Notes: generated from the letters alone by a model not told the origin. Positions 1,360 through 24,224 are shown, numbered from the stretch's first letter. The stretch: 24,456 nt of DNA from an uncultured Candidatus Saccharibacteria bacterium (GCA_964601555.1 CAZRNX010000001.1:1-24456), one strand, 5' to 3'. Numbers and translations are program-made.

Positions 1360-2058
1360 CTATAAGATATGGAGCGGAAGTACAGAGCATGCGTGGTGCT
1401 GGTATCTGCTTCCACGCTCTGCCACTTCCCGCGCTTCCAAGTACCTACGCCTTTCTCTCTCGTCTTTTGGTTGCATATACTGGAGCGGGGTACGGTTGAT
1501 GAAGTATCTTTCTGTTCCCTCAATGCCAGTCATGGCATCAAGCTCTGCGCCGCTATTCTCTACAACCGCAATCTTCTCTCTTCTCAAACACCGCCCGGAA
1601 GATGCGAGCACTAACGCCTTTCTTTGTTTCGTAGGCACATATATGATTTCGGAAAGAAGGTGAGCAATCTGGCACGCGGTTGCTTTATATCGTTGCCACG
1701 CCGGATTCCCCGCGGTCATCAATATGATTTCCCACCCTCTTTCTTGAGCTACTTCCAGGAAGCGGAGGGAGTCATTAAAGAGATAGCGCGCCAAATTTGC
1801 AAACTGTTCCGAGAGAAGCATTTGTATTTCATGGAGCGGAAAGCGTCGCAGTGAAAGCTTGGCCATTTCTCGCATGTGAAGATCAAGTGTGTAACCAACC
1901 TCGGTTGCGCTTCTGTACGAGCGTTCCCAGTTACGCTCCCAAAGAACGTCTTTCGCCCGAAATTGCGGCAGTGCGCCTGGAAGATCGCAATGAAAGAATC
2001 TATCCGTGTCCAAAAGCGTGTGGTCAAGGTCGAGAACCAGAAGTTTTTTGCTTTTCAT
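1360..2058 (-). CDS. HAD-superfamily hydrolase/phosphatase (232 aa)
   Basis: N-terminal motif I LLVLDLDHTLLD and motif II-like LMTAG. The start at 2058 overlaps the upstream stop (TAATG), so the longer called N-terminus is probably spurious. Confidence 0.8.
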   Translation of the reverse strand: MKSKKLLVLDLDHTLLDTDRFFHCDLPGALPQFRAKDVLWERNWERSYRSATEVGYTLDLHMREMAKLSLRRFPLHEIQMLLSEQFANLARYLFNDSLRFLEVAQERGWEIILMTAGNPAWQRYKATACQIAHLLSEIIYVPTKQRKALVLASSGRCLRREKIAVVENSGAELDAMTGIEGTERYFINRTPLQYMQPKDERERRRYLEAREVAERGSRYQHHACSVLPLHIL

Positions 2059-2603
2059 TATTCTTCCACCACTGTTCGCACCGGGAGAATGAGCGGCGCC
2101 CGTACTCGGAGCATTACTTCTGTCCTGTTGCCGTATTGCGTTCGCATCCCGACAATGCCTTCCCCGAAAGTCTCGGCATATACCTTGAGCGCATTGAAAT
2201 TGAACGCGTACACCCACACGATAAAAGTAATATGGCTTTCAATGCGGTTGTTATGCGCCTTCGTCCATGATGCTATTTCTCGCATGCTTTCCGAAATAAT
2301 TTTCGGCCCGATTTTGCACCCCTGCCACTTCTTCCCCACGCCGACCTGTTCGAGTTCCATAACCGGTTCGGACCGCAAGAATCCTCCATGCATTTGCCAG
2401 CCAATATAGCCAAGTATCGTACCGTCAGTATTTTCTGCTACAAAATACTGATAGACGGGGAAGGCGCGGAAAAGAGAAAATACCCACCGTTGCGCATCTT
2501 CTTCACTTCCGCGATGTCCGAGAAATATCTCGGCGTTTATTCTCGCTATGGCGAGTATGTCACCCTCAACAGCTCGACGAACAACACAACACTGTATATT
2601 CAT
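2058..2603 (-). CDS. GNAT-family N-acetyltransferase
   Basis: VRRAVEGDILAIARI start, YFVAE...ILGYI, acetyl-CoA motif A-like ELEQVGVGKKWQGCKIG. GAGGT SD upstream. Confidence 0.82.
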   Translation of the reverse strand: MNIQCCVVRRAVEGDILAIARINAEIFLGHRGSEEDAQRWVFSLFRAFPVYQYFVAENTDGTILGYIGWQMHGGFLRSEPVMELEQVGVGKKWQGCKIGPKIISESMREIASWTKAHNNRIESHITFIVWVYAFNFNALKVYAETFGEGIVGMRTQYGNRTEVMLRVRAPLILPVRTVVEE

Positions 2604-2689
2604 AAGTTACCTCGTATGAAACACCTTCTTCTTTTGATAACGGGGACAAAAAACAATAGTTACGCGTACTTTTTATCCACAATTTACAT

Positions 2690-2812
2690 TTGACTGCTCT
2701 TTTTTAGAGAGTAGTATGGTTTGAAATGGGTCAAAAAACAAACATCCGTAAGGCAGGAAAAAAGAAGGGACAAGTATCCCATTAACGCCCGCTTCAAGAG
2801 CGGCATTTTTTT
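2690..2812 (+). promoter_or_regulatory. carA promoter and leader with a short ORF and terminator-like hairpin
   Basis: TTGACT-N16-TAGTAT (2690-2717); 19-codon ORF 2726-2785; CCGCT/AGCGG hairpin 2789-2803 followed by T7 (2806-2812), ending 10 nt before the carA ATG. Confidence 0.5.
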
Positions 2813-2822
2813 ATCATAAAAC

Positions 2823-3983
2823 ATGAAACTCATTCTTGAAGACGGTACGGTATTTGCGGGCAAAAATTTCGGCGCCGATGTGCGAGCCGAAGGGGAAGTT
2901 GTATTTACAACCGGGATGGTGGGGTATGTGGAGAGCCTTTCGGACCCGTCGTATGCGGGGCAGATTCTCGTTTTCACAACACCCTTAGTCGGCAATTATG
3001 GCGTTCCGGATAGAGAGTTTTTCGAATCGGGCAGGGTGCAGGCGGCGGGGGTGATAGTTTCGGAATACAGCGAGAATTATTCCCATCATACCGCCGAGCG
3101 CTCGCTCTCTCGCTGGCTTACAGAAGCAGGAATTCCCGCCATTACCGGCATAGACACACGCGCGTTGACGAAAAAATTGCGCACGTACGGGGTGATGTTG
3201 GGGTCGATCGTGCACGACAAGCAGATGCCCAAAAACCAAAAGCCATTGAATGATCCCAACGATGAGAATCTTGTCGCGCGGGTGAGCATTACAAGACCTC
3301 AAACGTATGGCAACGGGCCACTCAAAATTATCGCGGTTGATTGCGGAATAAAAGAAAATATCATTCGGAAGCTTACTCGTCCCGATACAACCGTCACACG
3401 CGTGCCATGGGATTATGATTTCACCCGCGAGACATACGACGGCATTGTTTTTGGGAATGGTCCCGGAGATCCGACGGCGTGTACTCCCACCATCAAGCAC
3501 ATTAGAAGAATATTTACACAAGAAAGTAAGAAAGAGAGAAGTAGGCAAAGACCGATGTTGGGGATTTGCTTGGGCACTCAACTCATGGCACTCGCGGCGG
3601 GAGCGAAAACTTACAAGCTCAAATTCGGCCATCGTTCGCAGAATCAGCCGTGTTTACTAGATAACCACCAGACACCAAAATTTTCAAGTCCTCGGAGTGC
3701 CCAGACATTGAAAATTTTGGTGTCTGGTGGTTCACTGCCACAACGCTGTTACATCACTTCCCAAAATCATGGATTTGCCGTGGAAGAGAAGTCGCTCCCG
3801 AAAGATTGGAGCGTGTGGTTTACAAATGCGAACGATGGGAGTGTAGAGGGCATAAGACACAAGACCTCTCCCTGGCAAGCGGTGCAGTTTCATCCTGAAG
3901 CTTCCCCGGGACCCACGGATACAGGGTGGATATTTGACGATTTTCTGAAGATGGTGAGAGAGTATAAAAAAAATGGGAAATAA
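2823..3983 (+). CDS. carA: Carbamoyl-phosphate synthase small (glutaminase) subunit
   Basis: GEVVFTTGMVGY, SDPSYAGQIL, GIDTRALT, NGPGDP, nucleophile GICLGTQ, ITSQNHGFAV, QFHPEA. Confidence 0.97.
   Translation: MKLILEDGTVFAGKNFGADVRAEGEVVFTTGMVGYVESLSDPSYAGQILVFTTPLVGNYGVPDREFFESGRVQAAGVIVSEYSENYSHHTAERSLSRWLTEAGIPAITGIDTRALTKKLRTYGVMLGSIVHDKQMPKNQKPLNDPNDENLVARVSITRPQTYGNGPLKIIAVDCGIKENIIRKLTRPDTTVTRVPWDYDFTRETYDGIVFGNGPGDPTACTPTIKHIRRIFTQESKKERSRQRPMLGICLGTQLMALAAGAKTYKLKFGHRSQNQPCLLDNHQTPKFSSPRSAQTLKILVSGGSLPQRCYITSQNHGFAVEEKSLPKDWSVWFTNANDGSVEGIRHKTSPWQAVQFHPEASPGPTDTGWIFDDFLKMVREYKKNGK
3663..3732 (+). repeat. 70-bp palindromic element in-frame within carA
   Basis: Perfect 25-bp inverted repeat (3663-3687 and 3708-3732) around the 20-nt spacer GTCCTCGGAGTGCCCAGACA. 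Confidence 0.95.
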
Positions 3984-6900
3984 ACATAAAATCAAAAAAG
4001 TGCTTCTCCTCGGTTCCGGGGGGTTGAAGATTGGCCAGGGAGGAGAGTTTGACTATTCCGGATCGCAGGCGATTAAGGCGCTCAAGGAGGAGGGGGTTCG
4101 AGTCGTGTTGATTAATCCCAATATCGCAACTGTGCAAACGGACCCCGGACTCGCCGATATGGTATATTTCCTCCCGCTCACGCTTCCGTTTGCGAAAAAA
4201 GTGATTGAGAAAGAACGGCCAGACGCAATACTTTTAAGCTTTGGCGGACAGAGTGCGCTTAATTTGGGACTCGAACTCGACAAGGGGGGTGTTTTGAAAA
4301 AATATCACATGAGAGTGCTCGGCACTCCTGTTTCTGCTATTCAAGACACGGAAGATCGGGAGCTTTTCATCAAGCGCCTGAAAGAGATTGGCGTGAAGAC
4401 GGCAAAGAGTTTCGCGGCAAGAAATGTTCGTGCCGCGCTCCGTGCCGCCGAGAAAATAGGATACCCGGTAATGATGAGATCGGGATTCGCGCTCGGCGGA
4501 GAAGGTTCGGGTGTTTTAAAAAATTCCAAAGAACTTACACAGAGGGCGATGGAAGCTTTTCGAACCACGACGCAAGTGCTCATCGAAGAATATTTACTAG
4601 GCTGGAAGGAAGTTGAGTACGAAGTAGTGCGCGATTCGGCTGATAATTGTGTCGTCGTCTGCAACATGGAGAATCTCGATCCCATGGGCATTCACACCGG
4701 AGAGAGCATGGTGGTTGCGCCGTCGCAAACACTCACAAACGAGGAGTATCACAGACTTCGCGAGATTGCGATCCAAACAGTGCGGCACTTGGGGATTGTT
4801 GGAGAGTGCAATATTCAATACGCGCTTCATCCCAAGACTGGCGACTACCGCGTTATTGAAGTGAATGCGAGACTTTCTCGATCGTCCGCGCTGGCGTCAA
4901 AAGCAACGGGCTATCCGCTTGCATTCGTGGCGGCAAAAATCGCGCTTGGATCAACGCTTCCGAATCTCACCAATGCGGTGACGAAAACAACGAGCGCGTG
5001 TTTCGAACCGGCGCTTGACTATCTCGTGCTTAAATTGCCGCGCTGGGATCTCGGGAAATTTGAAAATGCATCCGCGCGCATCGGAACGGAAATGAAAAGC
5101 GTGGGTGAGGTGATGGCGATCGGGAGAAGCTTCGAGGAGGTATTGCAAAAAGGACTTCGCATGCTCTGCGTAGGCGCGGACGGCCTCACGGCCAACCGCA
5201 ATGCGAAGTTTGTCATACGGGATTTCGCCGCTGAAATTAAAAATCCCACCCCCCGGCGCGTGTTTGCAATAGCAGAAGCTCTGCGCGCGGGGTGGAGTGT
5301 GAAAAAAATCCACAAACTCTCGTGGATTGATCCGTGGTTTCTGGAAAAAATGAAAAATATTATCAAGATTGAGCAGAGTCTAAGAAACTGTCCGGAAAGC
5401 TTGTTCTCACGGACACGCGTCGCCTCGCCCCGCGAGCGAGGCGCGCTCTTCTCGTCCTCGCTCTCCGCCAGTGGCGGAACCATGCCCGCTCGGACTGCGA
5501 AAGTTCCGCTCAAACAACTTTCCAGCCAGTTTCTTCAGCTTCTTTTAGACGCAAAGAAACATGGCTTTGCTGATGTGCAGATCGCAGAGGCAACTGGGAG
5601 CACGGAAGAAGAGATTAGGGCATTGCGCATCCGGAAGAAAATTCTGCCGGCCGTAAAGCAGATCGATACGCTTGCCGGAGAATTTCCCGCGCAGACTAAC
5701 TACCTCTACCTCACATATCATGGAAGTGAAAATGATGTTGCGCCCACCGAAAGTAACAGGGCAAAAAATATTATCGTACTAGGGAGCGGGCCGTATTCGA
5801 TCGGCTCATCAGTGGAGTTCGATTGGTCAAGTGTGCAGGCGCTAAAAACGCTGAAAGCCGAGGGGCACATAACAATAATGATCAATTACAACCCTGAAAC
5901 CGTCTCCACTGATTACGATGAATCGAGCCGGCTGTATTTCGAGGAGCTCTCGCTCGAACGCGTTCTTGATATTGTGGAATTTGAGAAACCAAAAGGCGTA
6001 GTGATTTCCATGGGAGGACAGATTCCAAACAACCTCGCAATGCCACTTTCCAAAAATAAATCCCTCGGCAGTACACGTATTTTAGGCACCGACCCGAAAA
6101 ATATAGACCGTGCGGAAGACCGGAAGACATTTTCAGACTTACTCGATCGCATTGGCGTCGACCAGCCTCTGTGGGCAAAGCTTTCAACAGAGGAAAAAGC
6201 GCTTCAGACGGCGGAAGAGTTCGGGTATCCGCTTCTCGTGCGGCCGTCGTATGTTCTCTCAGGCGCCGCGATGAGCGTCGCATTCGATCGAGATTCACTT
6301 TTGAAATGTTTAAGGCGAGCCACGGATGTGTCCGCAGAGCATCCGGTGGTGATTTCCAAATTTATCGAAAATGCGCGTGAAATAGAAATAGACGGAGTTG
6401 CGACAAAGGGCGAACTCACCATTTACGCCATTACGGAGCATGTAGAGAACGCGGGCACGCATTCTGGCGATGCGACGGTAGTTATGCCTCCCCAGCACAC
6501 CTATCTTGAAACAATCCGGCGCGCGAAGCATATCACCCGCGAGGTTGTGAAAGAGTTGAGCGTCACCGGTCCCTTCAATATCCAGTTTCTCGCAAAAGAA
6601 AATCGTCTGCAGGTAATCGAGTGTAATGTCCGCGCGTCTCGGAGCTTTCCGTTCATTTCGAAAGCGTCAGGGTATAACTTCGCCGAACTTGCCACACGCG
6701 CGCTACTTGGGAAAGATATTTCGGGAGAATATAGAACGGTTGACCTAGACTATTGTGCGGTGAAGTCGCCGCAGTTCTCCTACCGTCGCATCAAAGGGGC
6801 CGACCCGCTCGCATACGTTGAGATGGCTTCAACGGGCGAGGTCGCGTGTTTCAGTGAATCGTACTCAGAGGCACTTCTCCAGTCCATGCAAGCCGCGGGG

Positions 6901-7362
6901 TTTCGCTTGCCCAAAAAAAATATTCTCATTTCACTCGGCAAAGAAGAAAACAAGGTGAAACTTCTTCCCGCGCTCGAAAAATTTGTCCGATTCGGACTGA
7001 ATATTTTTGCAACAGAACACACAGCAGACTTTTTGCAGAGTCACAATATTGCCTGCACAAAAGTGTATAAGATTCACACAAAGAAAGAACCGAACGTGTC
7101 CGGCTTGTTCGAGAATGACAATACAAAAGGCGGGAGGAGTAGCAAGAAAGGGAAGTTAGACCTCATCATCAACATCCCCGCTTCCGCACTCGCGCGGGAT
7201 TCAAAAGACGGCTTCATCATTCGCAGGAAAGCGGTAGACCTCAATATTCCGCTTATCACCAATCGCCAGCTTGCAGAGGCGTTCATCCTTGCTTTTTCGG
7301 AAATGAAAGAGCGCGGCCGAAACGGCGACTTCGAAGTCAAGCCGCGAGGAGAGTATAGATGA
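3973..7362 (+). CDS. carB: Carbamoyl-phosphate synthase large subunit
   Basis: LGSGGLKIGQGGEFDYSG, two ATP-grasp halves (NMENLDPMGIHTGES, EHVENAGTHSGD), SGPYSIGSSVEFD, C-terminal MGS-like domain. Overlaps carA by 11 nt. Confidence 0.97.
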   Translation: MGNKHKIKKVLLLGSGGLKIGQGGEFDYSGSQAIKALKEEGVRVVLINPNIATVQTDPGLADMVYFLPLTLPFAKKVIEKERPDAILLSFGGQSALNLGLELDKGGVLKKYHMRVLGTPVSAIQDTEDRELFIKRLKEIGVKTAKSFAARNVRAALRAAEKIGYPVMMRSGFALGGEGSGVLKNSKELTQRAMEAFRTTTQVLIEEYLLGWKEVEYEVVRDSADNCVVVCNMENLDPMGIHTGESMVVAPSQTLTNEEYHRLREIAIQTVRHLGIVGECNIQYALHPKTGDYRVIEVNARLSRSSALASKATGYPLAFVAAKIALGSTLPNLTNAVTKTTSACFEPALDYLVLKLPRWDLGKFENASARIGTEMKSVGEVMAIGRSFEEVLQKGLRMLCVGADGLTANRNAKFVIRDFAAEIKNPTPRRVFAIAEALRAGWSVKKIHKLSWIDPWFLEKMKNIIKIEQSLRNCPESLFSRTRVASPRERGALFSSSLSASGGTMPARTAKVPLKQLSSQFLQLLLDAKKHGFADVQIAEATGSTEEEIRALRIRKKILPAVKQIDTLAGEFPAQTNYLYLTYHGSENDVAPTESNRAKNIIVLGSGPYSIGSSVEFDWSSVQALKTLKAEGHITIMINYNPETVSTDYDESSRLYFEELSLERVLDIVEFEKPKGVVISMGGQIPNNLAMPLSKNKSLGSTRILGTDPKNIDRAEDRKTFSDLLDRIGVDQPLWAKLSTEEKALQTAEEFGYPLLVRPSYVLSGAAMSVAFDRDSLLKCLRRATDVSAEHPVVISKFIENAREIEIDGVATKGELTIYAITEHVENAGTHSGDATVVMPPQHTYLETIRRAKHITREVVKELSVTGPFNIQFLAKENRLQVIECNVRASRSFPFISKASGYNFAELATRALLGKDISGEYRTVDLDYCAVKSPQFSYRRIKGADPLAYVEMASTGEVACFSESYSEALLQSMQAAGFRLPKKNILISLGKEENKVKLLPALEKFVRFGLNIFATEHTADFLQSHNIACTKVYKIHTKKEPNVSGLFENDNTKGGRSSKKGKLDLIINIPASALARDSKDGFIIRRKAVDLNIPLITNRQLAEAFILAFSEMKERGRNGDFEVKPRGEYR
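5382..5535 (+). repeat. 154-bp imperfect palindromic element in-frame within carB
   Basis: Arms AAGAAACTG-tcc-GGAAAG-c-TTGTT and AACAA-CTTTCC-agc-CAGTTTCTT, with internal hairpins CGCCTCGC/GCGAGGCG and TCCGCC/GGCGGA. Confidence 0.75.
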
Positions 7363-9890: not shown

Positions 9891-9899
9891 GCAACATAA

Positions 9900-10079
9900 G
9901 GGCTCTTCCGAAAATAACTCCCCCATCTCGCCTCCAAATTTTCCCAATCTCCGACTTTTCTTCCGTCAAAAATCTTTCACTGCAGCTGCTGCTGCACCTC
10001 AAGATTTTTTCAGTCAGAAAAAATCGAATCTTAGAAAAATTTGAAACCGAATCTGGAGAAGTTATTTTCGGAAGAGCCC
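9900..10079. mobile_element. MITE-like 180-bp non-autonomous element
   Basis: Perfect 20-bp terminal inverted repeats GGGCTCTTCCGAAAATAACT (9900-9919) and its reverse complement (10060-10079); TAA on both flanks (9897-9899, 10080-10082); no ORF with a recognisable product inside. Confidence 0.7.
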
Positions 10080-10089
10080 TAAGTCGTTG

Positions 10090-18024: not shown

Positions 18025-18038
18025 GGTTTTATAATACT

Positions 18039-18116
18039 CTGATTCGTGAAATAAGTAAAATTTTCAACGTCTGGGCACTCCGAGGACTTGGAAATTTTAC
18101 TTATTTCACGAATCAG
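18039..18116 (-). repeat. 78-bp palindromic element overlapping the tig stop codon
   Basis: 29-bp inverted repeat with one mismatch (18039-18067 and 18088-18116) around a 20-nt spacer that matches the carA spacer at 19/20 on the minus strand. Confidence 0.95.
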
Positions 18117-19114
18117 GTTTCCAAAAACTCCATCACCTTCTCATTTATAAAGATAGATTCCACATAAGCTCTTGTGCGTTCCGGATCGGCGTCTCCATAA
18201 TGCCTAAGAAGATGCGCCACTTCTTTCTCCACCGCTTCTCTTTCTGGCGTAATATTTTTCTCTTGCGCAATATGTTTCAATACGAAGTTAGTCTTCACAC
18301 GCTTCTCTGCATCCGGAAACCACTCCTTGCGAATTTCTTCTTCACTTTTCTTCGCATGCTTCAAGTATTCGTCAAATGTTACGCCCATCGCCGCCACGTC
18401 AGCCTTGAACTGTTCCAGCATGGTTCGAAGTTCGCTCTCCGTGAGTATATCTGGGATCTCGCCCTTTGTTTCGGCAACGATTGCATCAAGAATTTCCGCG
18501 CGCTTCTTCGACCTGGCGCGATGCTCCTTCTCTTTCAAAAGATTCTCTCTTACTTTTATTCTCAGATCGTCAACAGTTTTAAAATCACCGACAGACTGTG
18601 CGAAGGCATCATTAAGCACCGGCAACTCTTTGTCCTCCTGCCCTCCTGTTTTTACCGCTCGCAACTCCCGCAATTTCTCGATAGCCTTTTCAACTTCTTC
18701 GTCCGAAACGCTCGCGACATCTTTCTTAGTCCGCTTTTCTTTTGTTTTTTTCTCGTAATCGGGAAGAGTAATTTTCGGGTAGGTGGCCGTGCGAATCTTA
18801 AAGCCGAGCGGGTTTCCCCGCGCAAGTTTGGTAAGCGATATGTGCGGCCGGCCAATCGCTTCTATTTTCTCTTCCGCAAGAATTTTCGGGTAATACTCGG
18901 CGAGAGCAAGCTCCGCCATCTTCTCTAACACGCCCGTTTCACCGACTTGCGCGGTGATAATATTTTCCGGGATATGTCCCTTGCGGAAGCCATCTATCGT
19001 GAGCGTATCTCCGAGCTTCTTCACGGCATGACTGCGAAATGCCTCAAAAATATCCGCGGGTATCTCGTCCGTGATCTCAACCTCGGATTTTGGCAACTTC
19101 TTTAATTCCGTCAT
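18113..19114 (-). CDS. tig: Trigger factor, short form (333 aa)
   Basis: Ribosome-binding signature IDGFRKGHIP, C-domain LNDAFAQSVGDFKTVDDLR...AEKRVKTNFVL. Start set to the ATG at 19114, 7 nt after a TTGACT-N17-TATGCT promoter. Confidence 0.92.
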   Translation of the reverse strand: MTELKKLPKSEVEITDEIPADIFEAFRSHAVKKLGDTLTIDGFRKGHIPENIITAQVGETGVLEKMAELALAEYYPKILAEEKIEAIGRPHISLTKLARGNPLGFKIRTATYPKITLPDYEKKTKEKRTKKDVASVSDEEVEKAIEKLRELRAVKTGGQEDKELPVLNDAFAQSVGDFKTVDDLRIKVRENLLKEKEHRARSKKRAEILDAIVAETKGEIPDILTESELRTMLEQFKADVAAMGVTFDEYLKHAKKSEEEIRKEWFPDAEKRVKTNFVLKHIAQEKNITPEREAVEKEVAHLLRHYGDADPERTRAYVESIFINEKVMEFLET

Positions 19115-19155
19115 AGCTAGAAGCATAGCGGGGGAGTAGAGAAAAGTCAAAAAAC

Positions 19156-19203
19156 AATCAAAAGTTAAACCTCGCTGGTACCAGCGAGGTTTAACTTTTG
19201 ATT
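19156..19203. terminator. 48-bp perfect palindrome, probable terminator upstream of the tig promoter
   Basis: AATCAAAAGTTAAACCTCGCTGGT followed directly by its exact reverse complement; U-rich run on the minus strand. Confidence 0.65.
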
Positions 19204-20363: not shown

Positions 20364-20948
20364 TCATTCAAACTTCGGCGCGTAATCTTTCCGATACCTT
20401 TCCGCGCACTCTTTGATGACCCTTAAAGCCTCCTCCGGCCCGTGAAATGTTTCTACCACCCCGGTTCCGGGCTTCTTGAGCGCTTTGTAGTTTTCCCAAT
20501 AATATTTTGTCTCTTTCTGCCAGTATTCTCCCAAATCTTCAAACGTCTTAATATGGTCTGTTCTCTTATCGTCATTCAGAACAGCGATAATTTTGTCGTC
20601 CACTTCGCCGCCGTCAACGAATTTCATTACGCCGACAACACGCGCCTCGACAAGTGATCCCGGCACGAGCGGCTCGGTAATATTTACGATCTCCACATCA
20701 AGCGGATCGCCGTCTTGATCCCATGTAAGTGGAATCGCGCCGTATGTAAATGGGTATGCGAGCGACGAGTAGCCGACGCGGTCGAGCTTCAACTGTCCGC
20801 TTTCGGTAATGATCTCGTATTTATTGATGTTTCCAGCCGAGACTTCAACGATCGCATTCACTACCCCCCTTGCTTCATCGGTAAAGGGGGGCAAAGCATG
20901 CAAAAGATTCAACATGTACTTCGACGGCTTGTGGTCTATGTGCGCCAT
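20364..20948 (-). CDS. ppa: Inorganic pyrophosphatase (family I)
   Basis: NKYE, LKLDR, YPFTYGAIP, DGDPLDV, DGGEVDDKIIAV, YWENYKALK. Confidence 0.93.
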   Translation of the reverse strand: MAHIDHKPSKYMLNLLHALPPFTDEARGVVNAIVEVSAGNINKYEIITESGQLKLDRVGYSSLAYPFTYGAIPLTWDQDGDPLDVEIVNITEPLVPGSLVEARVVGVMKFVDGGEVDDKIIAVLNDDKRTDHIKTFEDLGEYWQKETKYYWENYKALKKPGTGVVETFHGPEEALRVIKECAERYRKDYAPKFE

Positions 20949-20973
20949 AAATTATTTAAGTGAGGCGAATAAT

Positions 20974-22200
20974 TTATTCTGCAGTCTTAGTTTCCTCTGT
21001 TTTTTCTTCAATCGTTTCAGTTTGCTCTTGCTTGCTTTCTTCCAATGCCGCCTTTTCTTCTTCTGACGGACCCGTTCCGTGAATGTCAATTTTCCACCCG
21101 GTGAGCTTCGCGGCCAGACGAGCGTTCTGGCCGCCCTTGCCGATTGCAAGCGAGAGCTCCGGCTCTGCAACGGTTACATCTGCGCGATGCTCCTCCTCGT
21201 TTAATTTCACGGACAAAATTTTTGCGGGAGAGAGCGCGTCGGCGATGAATTTCTCCGGCTCGCTTGACCACTCGATGAGATCTATTTTCTCGCCGCCAAG
21301 TTCGCTCATGACGGTAGAAACTCTCACGCCGCGCTGGCCCACACACGACCCCACGGGATCGATGTGAAGATCGTTGGAATGTACCGCGATTTTTGATCGG
21401 CTGCCGGGCTCTCTTGCGATCTGCTTCAATTCCACAGTACCACTCGCAACTTCCGGTGCCTCGATTTTAAAGAGCTCTTCCAGGAATTTTGGATGGGTTC
21501 GGGAAAGCCGCAAGTTGATGCCGCGGGGCGTTTCCTCAACACGAAAAAGGTACGCACGGATTCGTTCCCCGGGGCGGTATCGTTCGCGCGGGGTCTGTTC
21601 TTCAAACGGCAGGATGGCGGTTGTTTTGCCGAGGTCAACGAAAATATTGCCGCGCTCAATTCTTTGCACCGTACCCGAAACAATCTCGCCCTCTTTTCTG
21701 CCGAATTCTTCAAGGGTGGTCACTTTTTCCGCTTCGCGGAGTTTTTGTATTATCACCTGCTTTGCGGTCTGCGCCGCAATGCGCCCATAATCTTCTTTCA
21801 ATTCGAGCGGAAAGACGATTTCGTCCTCAAGCTCCGCGTCTTTTTTGATCATCCTCGCGTCTTCAATGAGAATATGATGCTCGGAGTTGTAGCGCGTTCG
21901 CATATCTTCTTCATCTCCCGAAGTCTCGGCGGACGGGGATGGATCTCCCCCTTCGTCTTCCGTCTCTTTCGGAACGCGCACGACGCTTTCATCAACAACA
22001 ACTTTCACCTGCGAGAATTCCGTCGCGCCTGTGTCGAAATCAAAACGCGCTCGGACGATCTGCCCCTTTTTCCCGTACTCTTTTTTATACGCGGCGGCAA
22101 GCGCCATCTCAATGGCTTCCAAGATCTTTTCTTTCGAGATGCCCTTCTCCTGCTCCATCTGCTCGAGCGCCGAGCGAAGCGTTTTCAGATCAAATCGCAT
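20974..22200 (-). CDS. nusA: Transcription termination/antitermination factor NusA
   Basis: EKGISKEKILEAIE, YGRIAAQTAKQVIIQKLREAE, LSRTHP, IAREPGSRSKIAV, CVGQRGVRV, AIGKGGQNARLAAKLTGWKIDI. Confidence 0.97.
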   Translation of the reverse strand: MRFDLKTLRSALEQMEQEKGISKEKILEAIEMALAAAYKKEYGKKGQIVRARFDFDTGATEFSQVKVVVDESVVRVPKETEDEGGDPSPSAETSGDEEDMRTRYNSEHHILIEDARMIKKDAELEDEIVFPLELKEDYGRIAAQTAKQVIIQKLREAEKVTTLEEFGRKEGEIVSGTVQRIERGNIFVDLGKTTAILPFEEQTPRERYRPGERIRAYLFRVEETPRGINLRLSRTHPKFLEELFKIEAPEVASGTVELKQIAREPGSRSKIAVHSNDLHIDPVGSCVGQRGVRVSTVMSELGGEKIDLIEWSSEPEKFIADALSPAKILSVKLNEEEHRADVTVAEPELSLAIGKGGQNARLAAKLTGWKIDIHGTGPSEEEKAALEESKQEQTETIEEKTEETKTAE

Positions 22201-22355: not shown

Positions 22356-24224
22356 ATGTCTAATTTCTCTTTTGGGAAAGAAATGCCGGGTCATGTTCTG
22401 AAAGAGCTTGCGGAATATCCAGAGTTCCTGCGCGCGCTTCTCTTTCACCGAGATATTACAACTCGCGAGAAAGCAGAGAAGTTTCTCCATCCGTCGTACG
22501 AGCGCGACTCGAACGATCCGTTTCTGATGCACGACATGAAAAAAGCGGCAGAGCGAATCGTACGCGCGATTGAGGGGAGAGAGAAAATAGTGATTTTCGG
22601 CGATTATGACTGCGACGGCATCCCCGGCTCGGTGGTGCTCCATGACTTTTTCAAAAAAATAGGCTACACGAACTTCTCAAACTACATTCCCCATAGGCAC
22701 AACGAAGGGTACGGCTTGAATATCAAAGCGCTTGAAAACTTTACCCGAGACGGCGTGAATCTTGTTGTGACCGTTGATTGCGGCATTGTTGATTTCGAAC
22801 AAGCTCTCACGGCACGAGAACTTGGGCTTGACTTGATTATCACCGATCATCACTTGCCGGGAGAGAAAATCCCCAATGCTTTTGCTGTTGTAAATCCGAA
22901 ACTTTTATCTGCCGATGAGACAGATGGGGAAGAATATCCCGACTCGATGCTCTGCGGCGCAGGAGTAGCGTTTAAGTTGGTGCAGGCCCTTTTGGAAACA
23001 AGTACTATAGCCGGAGCGAAAAATATTTTTCCTGAAACCTCTTCCCCCCCAAATTCGCTACACGAATTTGGCCGCGCCCCCGCCCCGGTTTCAGCAAAAA
23101 CATTTTCCGCTCCGGCAAACCGTTCTTTTCGCGAAGCGTTTAATATTCCTCCCGGCTGGGAGAAGTGGCTCCTCGATATGGCGGGACTCTCTACTGTCGC
23201 TGACATGGTGCCGCTTCAGAACGAGAATAGGATGATTGCCTATTATGGACTGAAGGTTCTACGCAAAAGCCAGCGCATTGGGCTCAAGAAACTTCTGGAG
23301 AAAATGCGCATACAGCAGGAGAATCTCACAGAAGACGACATCGGCTTCATGATCGCGCCGCGGATTAATACAGCGTCTCGAATGGATATTCCTATGCGCG
23401 CATTTGAACTTCTCTCGACGGCTGATGAAAAGAAGGCGGACGCACTCGCAATGCATTTACATACGCTCAATGATCAGCGCAAGGGGGTGGTTGCATTGAT
23501 GGTGAAAGAAGCGAAACACACGCTTACGAACCGCGAGGTAGGGGAAGTGATCGTGACCGGGAATCCCAAGTGGTCGCCCGGACTCCTTGGCCTTGCCGCA
23601 AGCGCGATAGTGGAGAATTTCCACCGTCCCGCTTTTGTCTGGGGCAAGGATGAGGAAGGAAAAATCAAGGGCTCATGCCGCTCGGATGGTTCGGTTTCTG
23701 TCGTGGAACTCATGTCGCGCAGTAAAGAGTATTTCATACAATACGGCGGACACGAAGCATCGGGAGGATTCATGGTGTCGTATGAACACATTCACATTCT
23801 TGAAGAAAGACTTTCTCTTGTATACAAAGAGATGGGGGGGAAGAAAGAAAAGAAAGGAAGTGAAGAGATTTTCATAGATGCGAAACTCTCTCTTGATGAC
23901 GTGAATTGGGAGAATTACAAAATGATAGAGAGCCTGTCGCCATTCGGGCAAGGTAACCCGAAGCCGGTGTTTCTGTTTGAAAATATAAAAATAGAGAGCG
24001 TACGCGAATTCGGCAAAACCGGCACGCATCTCGAGCTCGTTTTCAAAAATTCAAAAAATATTCCCGTGAAAGCAGTCGCGTTTTTTAAAGCAAACGGCAA
24101 GAAAGATACAGAAGGGGAGAGACACTTCGCGCCCGGCGACACGCTAACTCTCGCCGTATCAATAGAGAAAGATAATTTTAAGAGATATCCGGAGCTGCGG
24201 TTACGGGTGATTGAAATTACATAA
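22356..24224 (+). CDS. recJ: Single-stranded-DNA-specific exonuclease RecJ
   Basis: DHH motifs FGDYDCDG, VTVDCG, ITDHH, TVADMVPL, APRINTASR, GSCR, GGH. Start set to the ATG at 22356, 6 nt after TTGCTC-N17-TATACT. Confidence 0.95.
   Translation: MSNFSFGKEMPGHVLKELAEYPEFLRALLFHRDITTREKAEKFLHPSYERDSNDPFLMHDMKKAAERIVRAIEGREKIVIFGDYDCDGIPGSVVLHDFFKKIGYTNFSNYIPHRHNEGYGLNIKALENFTRDGVNLVVTVDCGIVDFEQALTARELGLDLIITDHHLPGEKIPNAFAVVNPKLLSADETDGEEYPDSMLCGAGVAFKLVQALLETSTIAGAKNIFPETSSPPNSLHEFGRAPAPVSAKTFSAPANRSFREAFNIPPGWEKWLLDMAGLSTVADMVPLQNENRMIAYYGLKVLRKSQRIGLKKLLEKMRIQQENLTEDDIGFMIAPRINTASRMDIPMRAFELLSTADEKKADALAMHLHTLNDQRKGVVALMVKEAKHTLTNREVGEVIVTGNPKWSPGLLGLAASAIVENFHRPAFVWGKDEEGKIKGSCRSDGSVSVVELMSRSKEYFIQYGGHEASGGFMVSYEHIHILEERLSLVYKEMGGKKEKKGSEEIFIDAKLSLDDVNWENYKMIESLSPFGQGNPKPVFLFENIKIESVREFGKTGTHLELVFKNSKNIPVKAVAFFKANGKKDTEGERHFAPGDTLTLAVSIEKDNFKRYPELRLRVIEIT
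23010..23116 (+). repeat. 107-bp palindromic element in-frame within recJ
   Basis: 30-bp arms matching at 27/30 (23010-23039 and 23087-23116); internal hairpin CCAAATTCG/CGAATTTGG. Confidence 0.85.

Follow-up and report, generated by a model that had tools for sequence, protein, structure and literature searches.

A perfect 70-nt palindrome inside carA of an ultra-small bacterium from groundwater is probably one copy of a lineage-restricted, non-autonomous hairpin repeat that inserted into the gene and is read through as a tolerated passenger, in a manner resembling the Rickettsia palindromic elements (RPEs). Support for this reading comes from about nine other, intergenic loci of the same family, a closest CarA that lacks the insert, empty sites at family loci, and a structural model in which the insert forms a disordered tip. 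The palindrome lies in a 24,456-nt stretch of DNA (hereafter the window) belonging to a 774-kb genome (129 contigs, 48% GC, 96% estimated completeness) from a groundwater metagenome. The nearest CarA and trigger-factor relatives bear Parcubacteria, Nomurabacteria, or Kaiserbacteria names; judged from these names, the host is a member of the Patescibacteria of Parcubacteria/Paceibacteria type. The principal features of the window are as follows.

2823-3983, plus strand: carA, glutamine-hydrolysing carbamoyl-phosphate synthase small subunit, 386 aa, intact.
3663-3732, plus strand: perfect palindrome of 70 nt, with 25-bp arms (3663-3687 and 3708-3732) and a 20-nt spacer; a family copy in the carA frame.
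3663-3734, plus strand: net insertion of 72 nt (24 codons), from protein alignments against homologue P0002 and 88 homologues with a six-residue loop.
3677-3718, plus strand: conserved family core, from BLAST and regular-expression matches at nine other loci, alignment, and consensus fold.
3973-7362, plus strand: carB, large subunit, 1129 aa, overlapping the carA stop.
18036-18119, minus strand: second family copy in the window, between two minus-strand genes.

A repeat finder run on the window returned the two arms as 100% complementary over 25 nt and 20 nt apart. The arm sequence occurs twice in the window, once per strand, where 100 shuffles gave an expectation of 0. The RNA fold of the 86-nt segment 3655-3740 has a free energy of -45.6 kcal/mol (z = -8.9), a value equaled by 0 of 200 dinucleotide shuffles. 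Repeat finding, shuffling, and folding thus confirm the 25-bp perfect inverted repeat with a 20-nt spacer that a preliminary description had reported.

CarA reads NQPC-LLDNHQTPKFSSPRSAQTLKILVSGGSLPQRCY-ITSQNHG, with 33 residues from NQPC to ITSQ. The same preliminary description had put the typical interval at about nine residues, and this holds in 88 of 118 homologues, in which a six-residue loop is followed by RCY. The window loop has 30 residues, a net gain of 24 aa; the corresponding 72 nt equal the 70-nt palindrome plus 2 nt, in agreement with the proposed match between excess and palindrome length. The borders of the insertion (3663-3734) are uncertain by a few bases and are read as NHQTPKFSSPRSAQTLKILVSGGS. 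No target-site duplication was seen flanking the carA copy or the other copies, and comparison of filled and empty sites gives no clean duplication. The closest CarA (P0002; 357 aa, 71% identity over aligned parts) reads NQPC-VESGTG-RCY, without an insert. Alignments by phmmer against solved carbamoyl-phosphate synthetase (CPS) structures split at this place, leaving query residues 279-307 unmatched against 5 residues in human CPS1, and they put the insertion site at about residues 298-303 of Escherichia coli CarA, immediately before the ITAQNHGF strand. Longer loops, of 12-36 residues, occur at exactly the same position in 22 of the 118 homologues.

These metagenomic CarA homologues stood in for carA of related genomes in the empty-site comparison, carA not having been found in 40 relatives of the same genus, family, and order, the same-genus genome G001 included. 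The window thus carries carAB though 40 relatives have no detected carA, and its nearest CarAs are of Kaiserbacteria type, a pattern suggesting that synthesis of pyrimidine/arginine precursors has been patchily retained, or transferred, within the phylum. CarA also has a second, smaller, lineage-specific extension (FTQESKKERSRQRP, encoded at 3536-3559) of about 8 extra residues at about 238-245, before the catalytic GICLG; P0002 has about 4 residues of it.

The carA register is stop-free through the hairpin, and the other two sense frames contain stops. Three intergenic copies (on contigs C38, C104, and C111) are stop-free in the same register, with the peptide pattern NY/H-x-IL-KF-P/S-SPRS-A/T-QTL-K/R-I... 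(e.g., NHEILKFSSPRSTQTLRILVFHDS), so the family is readable in the carA register. Relative to these peptides, the carA copy has mainly exchanged Y/I/L/F/R/N for H/T/P/S/G/G, residues more friendly to a loop, while keeping perfect pairing. Whatever maintains the pairing of the stem, selection on the insert peptide may have operated alongside it.

The protein around the insert appears sound. Window CarA has the CPSase_sm_chain (PF00988) and GATase (PF00117) domains, an adjacent carB, and every residue invariant across the 118 homologues, including the Cys249-His357-Glu359 triad. An AlphaFold2 model built on the 118-homologue alignment (mean pLDDT 86.6, pTM 0.87) matches the CPS small subunits 1JDB and 1CS0 at a TM-score of about 0.84. 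Its only long low-confidence segment (pLDDT < 50) is residues 288-304, part of a coil (280-306) with strand 272-279 before it and strand 307-313 after it. On this model the insert prolongs the tip of a β-hairpin as a disordered stretch, and the structure prediction that had been proposed as a check of the loop returned a low-confidence coil tip in an otherwise confident CarA fold. The suggestion that the insert adjoins the glutaminase active site holds in sequence, the flanking strand bearing the QNHG motif, and the claim is limited to sequence.

In three other Patescibacteria CarAs the same loop is occupied by hairpin-forming inserts, unrelated in sequence to the window element and stemming from two independent insertions.

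L015:1327-1400: CarA-loop insert of P0048, 36 aa, z = -5.8.
L050:1004-1077: CarA-loop insert of P0096, 36 aa, z = -7.4.
L048:2322-2395: CarA-loop insert of P0036, 29 aa, z = -6.4.

At the empty site of P0002, by contrast, z is +0.7. P0048 and P0096 differ at the apical sub-hairpin (GUGC/GCAC versus GCGC/GCGC), where a compensated change has taken place within a coding sequence. Hairpin elements unrelated to one another have struck this CarA loop independently in three or more Patescibacteria lineages. Equally long loops across the clade, free of DNA palindromy, had been named as the observation that would speak against an inserted hairpin; most orthologues instead have short loops, and the longest loops are strong hairpins. 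In the hairpins of these other CarAs, the outer stem includes the conserved Pro-Cys codons CCCTGT, and the near-repeat CCAGCCC(T/G)GT flanks the hairpin.

The carA hairpin belongs to a family of about 10 copies in the host genome (G000), located by BLAST, a loop regular expression, and R1, a covariance model derived from 8 copies, with which the carA copy scores 96 bits.

Family copies in G000: C1:3659-3736 (carA), C1:18036-18119, and one each on C24, C38, C43, C50, C63, C88, C104, and C111.

All copies share the inner stem AAAATTT(T/C)CAA / TTGAAAATTT with one bulged purine, and a loop that starts GTCCTCGG and ends CCAGAC. The core of the carA copy comprises the inner stem AAAATTTTCAA, the loop GTCCTCGGAGTGCCCAGAC, one bulged A, and then TTGAAAATTTT; the loop lengthens the stem itself by GUC/GAC pairing. 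This 42-nt core is 87-98% identical to 8 other loci in the genome. The outer stem (12-20 bp) varies in sequence among copies and keeps its complementarity, with compensatory double changes at 13 of 28 stem pairs (RNAalifold, 8 copies). Across 25 copies the stem pairs comprise 709 Watson-Crick, 21 A.C, 13 G.U, and 9 other. On the usual sense strand of the confident stem, 8 variable-position A.C pairs plus one shared position stand against 2 G.U pairs, a count that reflects few independent events. The outer-stem consensus is approximately ATTACGAAATACT; the carA copy has ACCACCAGACACC, with mostly T-to-C changes mirrored on the opposite arm. Outer stems are still recognizably related, so the repeated unit is the whole hairpin and not the core alone. 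The carA copy is the best paired of all (25 of 25) and has the most divergent outer stem. Elements measure 68-104 nt in G000 and 90-100 nt in G001 and in the same-family genome G004. Searches of Rfam at permissive thresholds with 8 copy-bearing loci gave no family match, only sub-threshold look-alikes of miRNA precursors, which any long hairpin draws in Rfam.

The family is narrowly distributed. The R1 search found about 12 copies in G001, 3 in G004, and 1 in G090, and none in the remaining ~185 of about 190 genomes searched in the order. The G001 copies have a longer loop (GTCCTCGGGTCTCCTCGCTTTGCTCGGCCAGAC). When metagenomes were scanned with a 17-mer, 4 of 80 loci were true members (2 being G001's own contigs) and the rest were mostly chance matches; the scan placed the family in two further samples. 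With genes called by a codon-usage gene caller trained on long open reading frames of the genome, 24 of 25 copies examined are intergenic and tight against gene ends, in short spacers where they often abut or overlap a stop codon; only the carA copy is intragenic. Relative to flanking genes, about 15 copies have the same orientation and 8 the opposite, giving no firm strand preference. Two sites filled in G001 are empty in G000: one on C45, reading TAA-C-ATG where the G001 counterpart has about 107 extra bases, and one at 20948-21076 of the window, at the place of a G001 intergenic copy. The family has thus been gained or lost site by site, as a mobile or once-mobile element would be.

The second window copy has an outer stem that spans the stop codon of the trigger-factor gene (tig; 18113-19201). 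No family copy was found at the orthologous place 3' of tig in relatives, where terminator-type hairpins occur. In one relative (G007, L199:1380-1500) that place holds a composite hairpin (z = -9.4), whose inner part, CCCGAACGC/GCGTTCGGG, is a terminator stem rich in GC and bordered on either side by A/U tracts, and whose outer part is a long AT-rich stem of AGCAATAAG repeats enclosing it. At the other end of the window gene, just upstream of this minus-strand coding sequence, lies a spacerless 48-bp perfect palindrome (19156-19203; z = -11.3), for which BLAST found no second copy in the genome.

That the insert is an assembly chimera through the repeat, or a lineage-specific expansion of the loop devoid of repeat DNA, is extremely improbable. 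Such accounts could draw on the De Bruijn contigs of Logan, which end within the repeat core, and on the variable loop length (12-36 residues in the 22 homologues above) of Patescibacteria CarA. Logan contigs nevertheless enter the insert from unique sequence on both sides in four runs from two groundwater samples of one study: left-side contigs run from unique carA through the left arm and loop (1500-3714 or 3284-3714), right-side contigs from the loop through the right arm (3688-4414 or 3688-5469), and the junctions are the same in the two samples. Each arm is unique in the genome and sits on its own contig, and still the two complement each other exactly, a match that no chimera would yield; the carA frame is unbroken across them. 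In the second sample, SNPs at 3779 and 3803 accompany a retained insert, marking a second strain variant that carries it, and no Logan contig in the two samples joins across an empty-site allele of the window carA. The identity of the core to eight other loci means, further, that the loop is made of repeat DNA. The carA insert is not an assembly artifact. Very improbable, too, is an insert that is present in DNA yet missing from the protein through ribosome bypass or excision from the mRNA. Bypassing has precedents in gene 60 of phage T4 and in the mitochondrial byp elements of Magnusiomyces, and a very stable hairpin within a coding sequence (-46 kcal/mol) is a bypass-type structure, with nothing in the data specific to bypass. 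An insert whose length divides exactly by three and whose carA frame is free of stops needs no bypass, no take-off/landing codon pair or splice-like motif is evident, and Rickettsia genes with an RPE are translated through the insert according to the summary of Abergel et al. (2006) given in PMC2229807.

A weightier alternative, still unlikely, is that the hairpins are functional structures under selection rather than selfish DNA, serving as RNA processing or stability sites of polycistronic mRNAs, where they would be RNase III targets or block exonucleases, or as protein-binding sites at the apical loop; for the carA copy this would mean a regulator within the coding sequence that, for example, cleaves or pauses the carA-carB message. 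The compensated pairs and nearly complete Watson-Crick pairing of the stems speak for it, as do a conserved apex and variable lower stem (the reverse of the conserved termini of a transposon), the position of copies exactly at gene ends within operons, the terminator-type hairpins 3' of tig in relatives, and an RNase III gene in the genome, Correia elements being RNase III targets (PMC2229807). Against it stand the mixed orientation of copies, the filled and empty states of orthologous sites in different species, and the absence of the family from most relatives. Mismatches in the confident stem are, moreover, mostly A.C on the usual sense strand, which would weaken that RNA and would become G.U only if the other strand were read, and the stem is followed by no U-tract, so the hairpins are not intrinsic terminators. 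Function and selfish origin can both hold and do not exclude each other. The selfish reading itself has to accommodate the lack of MITE-type terminal inverted repeats and an outermost stem that is the least conserved part. Diverged copies with compensated stems point less to simple selfish spread than to pairing maintained over the long term, and the perfect pairing of the carA copy despite its most divergent outer stem is not explained by neutrality alone. We consider it doubtful that some active process preserves the structure of the family, or that selection for a function read at the apex maintains its pairing, as opposed to the elements being mere tolerated junk. If either held, the elements might target small DNA hairpins already in place, CCCTG...CGGGG among the codons of the native loop pairing weakly; alternatively, hairpins in coding sequences of tiny genomes might be built-in regulators at the RNA level, such as RNase III or pause sites.

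For insertion and passive carriage, the reading that we prefer, the following course can be envisaged. Elements of 70-100 nt usually occupy short spacers between tightly packed genes, and one copy would have entered carA, most likely by insertion in a transposition-like arrival, at the β-hairpin tip between the GHRSQNQPC and RCYITSQNHG strands of the glutaminase domain. At 72 nt, a multiple of three, and in the only stop-free frame of the sense orientation, it would be transcribed and translated with the gene, as its open frame suggests, into a flexible loop of 24 residues at the protein surface. Neither the fold of CarA nor its catalytic residues would suffer, and the insert, presumably neutral, would persist as a tolerated passenger, as RPEs do in Rickettsia. 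With 1 of 25 copies intragenic, in-frame invasion is atypical of the family. In the mRNA, the 25-bp perfect RNA duplex would be a plausible RNase III substrate or ribosome obstacle; RNase III is encoded in the genome, and the structure makes a side effect on the mRNA likely.

We also considered which enzyme could have moved the repeat. The genome holds one IS200-type transposase gene.

C22:4733-5128 (L035:1405-1800), minus strand: Y1_Tnp (IS200-type) gene, the sole one in G000, 131 aa, with Y1_Tnp at C22:4829-5119.

Its C-terminal part extends into the end of an alpha/beta-hydrolase gene that converges on it; the Y1 gene looks truncated and is possibly a remnant. We rejected a RAYT/IS200 link: no family copies lie beside this gene, and across 41 genomes Y1 genes and the repeat are not co-distributed, with Y1 genes in 28 of 41 relatives irrespective of the repeat and none found in the repeat-bearing G001. 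A TnpB-type gene was not found in the genome. A small stand-alone GIY-YIG open reading frame (78 aa, C16:6527-6763) is flanked by no family copy or other hairpin.

The genome contains a further repeat, represented in the window by a 187-bp MITE-like element (9897-10083), which is bounded by perfect terminal inverted repeats of 21 bp and has no relation to the carA hairpins. It has more than 35 genome copies at 99-100% identity, many of them at contig ends; it looks like a recent burst, and its copies probably explain the 129-contig assembly. Two copies lie in inverted orientation 1.4 and 1.9 kb to either side of the Y1 gene. The genome has two DDE_Tnp_1 matches, and these genes more likely serve the 187-bp element.

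Among known repeat systems, the closest likeness is to RPEs. Ten types, RPE-1 to RPE-10, have been described (Ogata et al. 2000, 2002); as summarized in PMC10969869 and PMC2229807, they lie in frame in many conserved genes, are retained in the product, and are near-neutral, guanylate kinase being an example. Like them, the carA family is a repeated, non-autonomous hairpin element of a reduced genome, with no known transposase, that occurs both between genes and in frame in a conserved enzyme gene, adding a surface peptide without destroying the protein, as judged here from the open frame and the model. It shares with RPEs the repeated long stem-loop and, in only 1 of ~25 copies, an in-frame surface insert in an intact gene, carA. 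It differs in host, in length (70-100 nt against about 105-150 bp), and in the intragenic share, which reaches nearly half in some RPE families against 1 of ~25 copies here; it also conserves the hairpin apex while the outer stem varies with compensation, and the likeness is one of description. The view that a selfish hairpin had landed in a tolerant loop in RPE-like fashion stands by analogy rather than through family membership, taxon, size, and build being different. Descent from RPEs is very unlikely in a patescibacterial host, and the carA insert is best called a further case of the known protein-coding palindromic repeat kind.

Other systems fit less fully. Correia/NEMIS, ERIC, RUP, and YPAL are bacterial MITEs with long stem-loops (Delihas 2008, PMC2229807). 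The carA family resembles them in small size, intergenic position at gene ends, and occasional in-frame fusion to an open reading frame; MITEs may also be cotranscribed with their neighbors, and stem-loop RNA is a possible RNase III target in the Correia case (PMC2229807). MITEs, however, have conserved terminal inverted repeats and target-site duplications (often TA), whereas here the termini are the most variable part; we set this class aside because outer stems differ among copies, the inner stem and loop ends are conserved, and no flanking duplication is present. REP/BIME and REPIN-RAYT systems (PMC3733652) are likewise extragenic gene-end palindromes with a protein-recognizable hairpin and proposed roles in mRNA stability and termination, and the host genome does have a Y1_Tnp gene. 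REPs, in contrast, measure 20-40 bp, bear a GTAG or CGTC head, usually number tens to hundreds of copies, and flank a RAYT gene (PMC3733652). The family alignment has no conserved head tetranucleotide and the Y1 gene no nearby copy, and we rejected this class as well. Intrinsic (Rho-independent) terminators were rejected on their AT-rich, 24-34-bp stems with no T-run after them. The scattered, conserved-motif hairpins of the Ssn (GIY-YIG)/NTS/SRM system (Chenal et al. 2025, PMC11893778) may offer a last likeness, given the small GIY-YIG gene here; SRM hairpins often flank ssn, the GIY-YIG gene here is unflanked, and the likeness is by description and not to the SRM consensus.

Two further enzyme genes of the window contain in-frame hairpins. 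A GC-rich branched hairpin in carB (5384-5533; -62.6 kcal/mol, z = -4.0) codes for a Ser/Arg/Pro/Ala-rich stretch, and BLAST found no second copy of the segment in the genome. The recJ-like gene carries a hairpin at 23010-23116 (z = -9.5), with 30-nt arms that are 90% complementary and a 47-nt spacer with a small hairpin of its own; it has weak BLAST matches to contigs C10 and C2.

The genomes of Patescibacteria (CPR) rank with the smallest and most streamlined known; the present one nevertheless has at least two repeat families and several hairpin inserts in the core enzymes CarA, CarB, and RecJ within 24 kb. In the literature searched we found no published description of such in-frame hairpin repeats in Patescibacteria. 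Once the family is seen the single carA case is ordinary; the build of the family and the recurrent hairpins in the CarA loop are worth following. If translated, hairpin inserts would keep supplying essential proteins with new surface loops, a process proposed for Rickettsia RPEs and met here in an unrelated reduced lineage, which argues that genome reduction and mobile hairpins together generally have this outcome. The family also lets regulation of mRNA by coding-region hairpins be tested, and the conserved apex with its variable paired stem, together with the reuse of one CarA loop, provides handles for finding the protein that recognizes or moves these elements.
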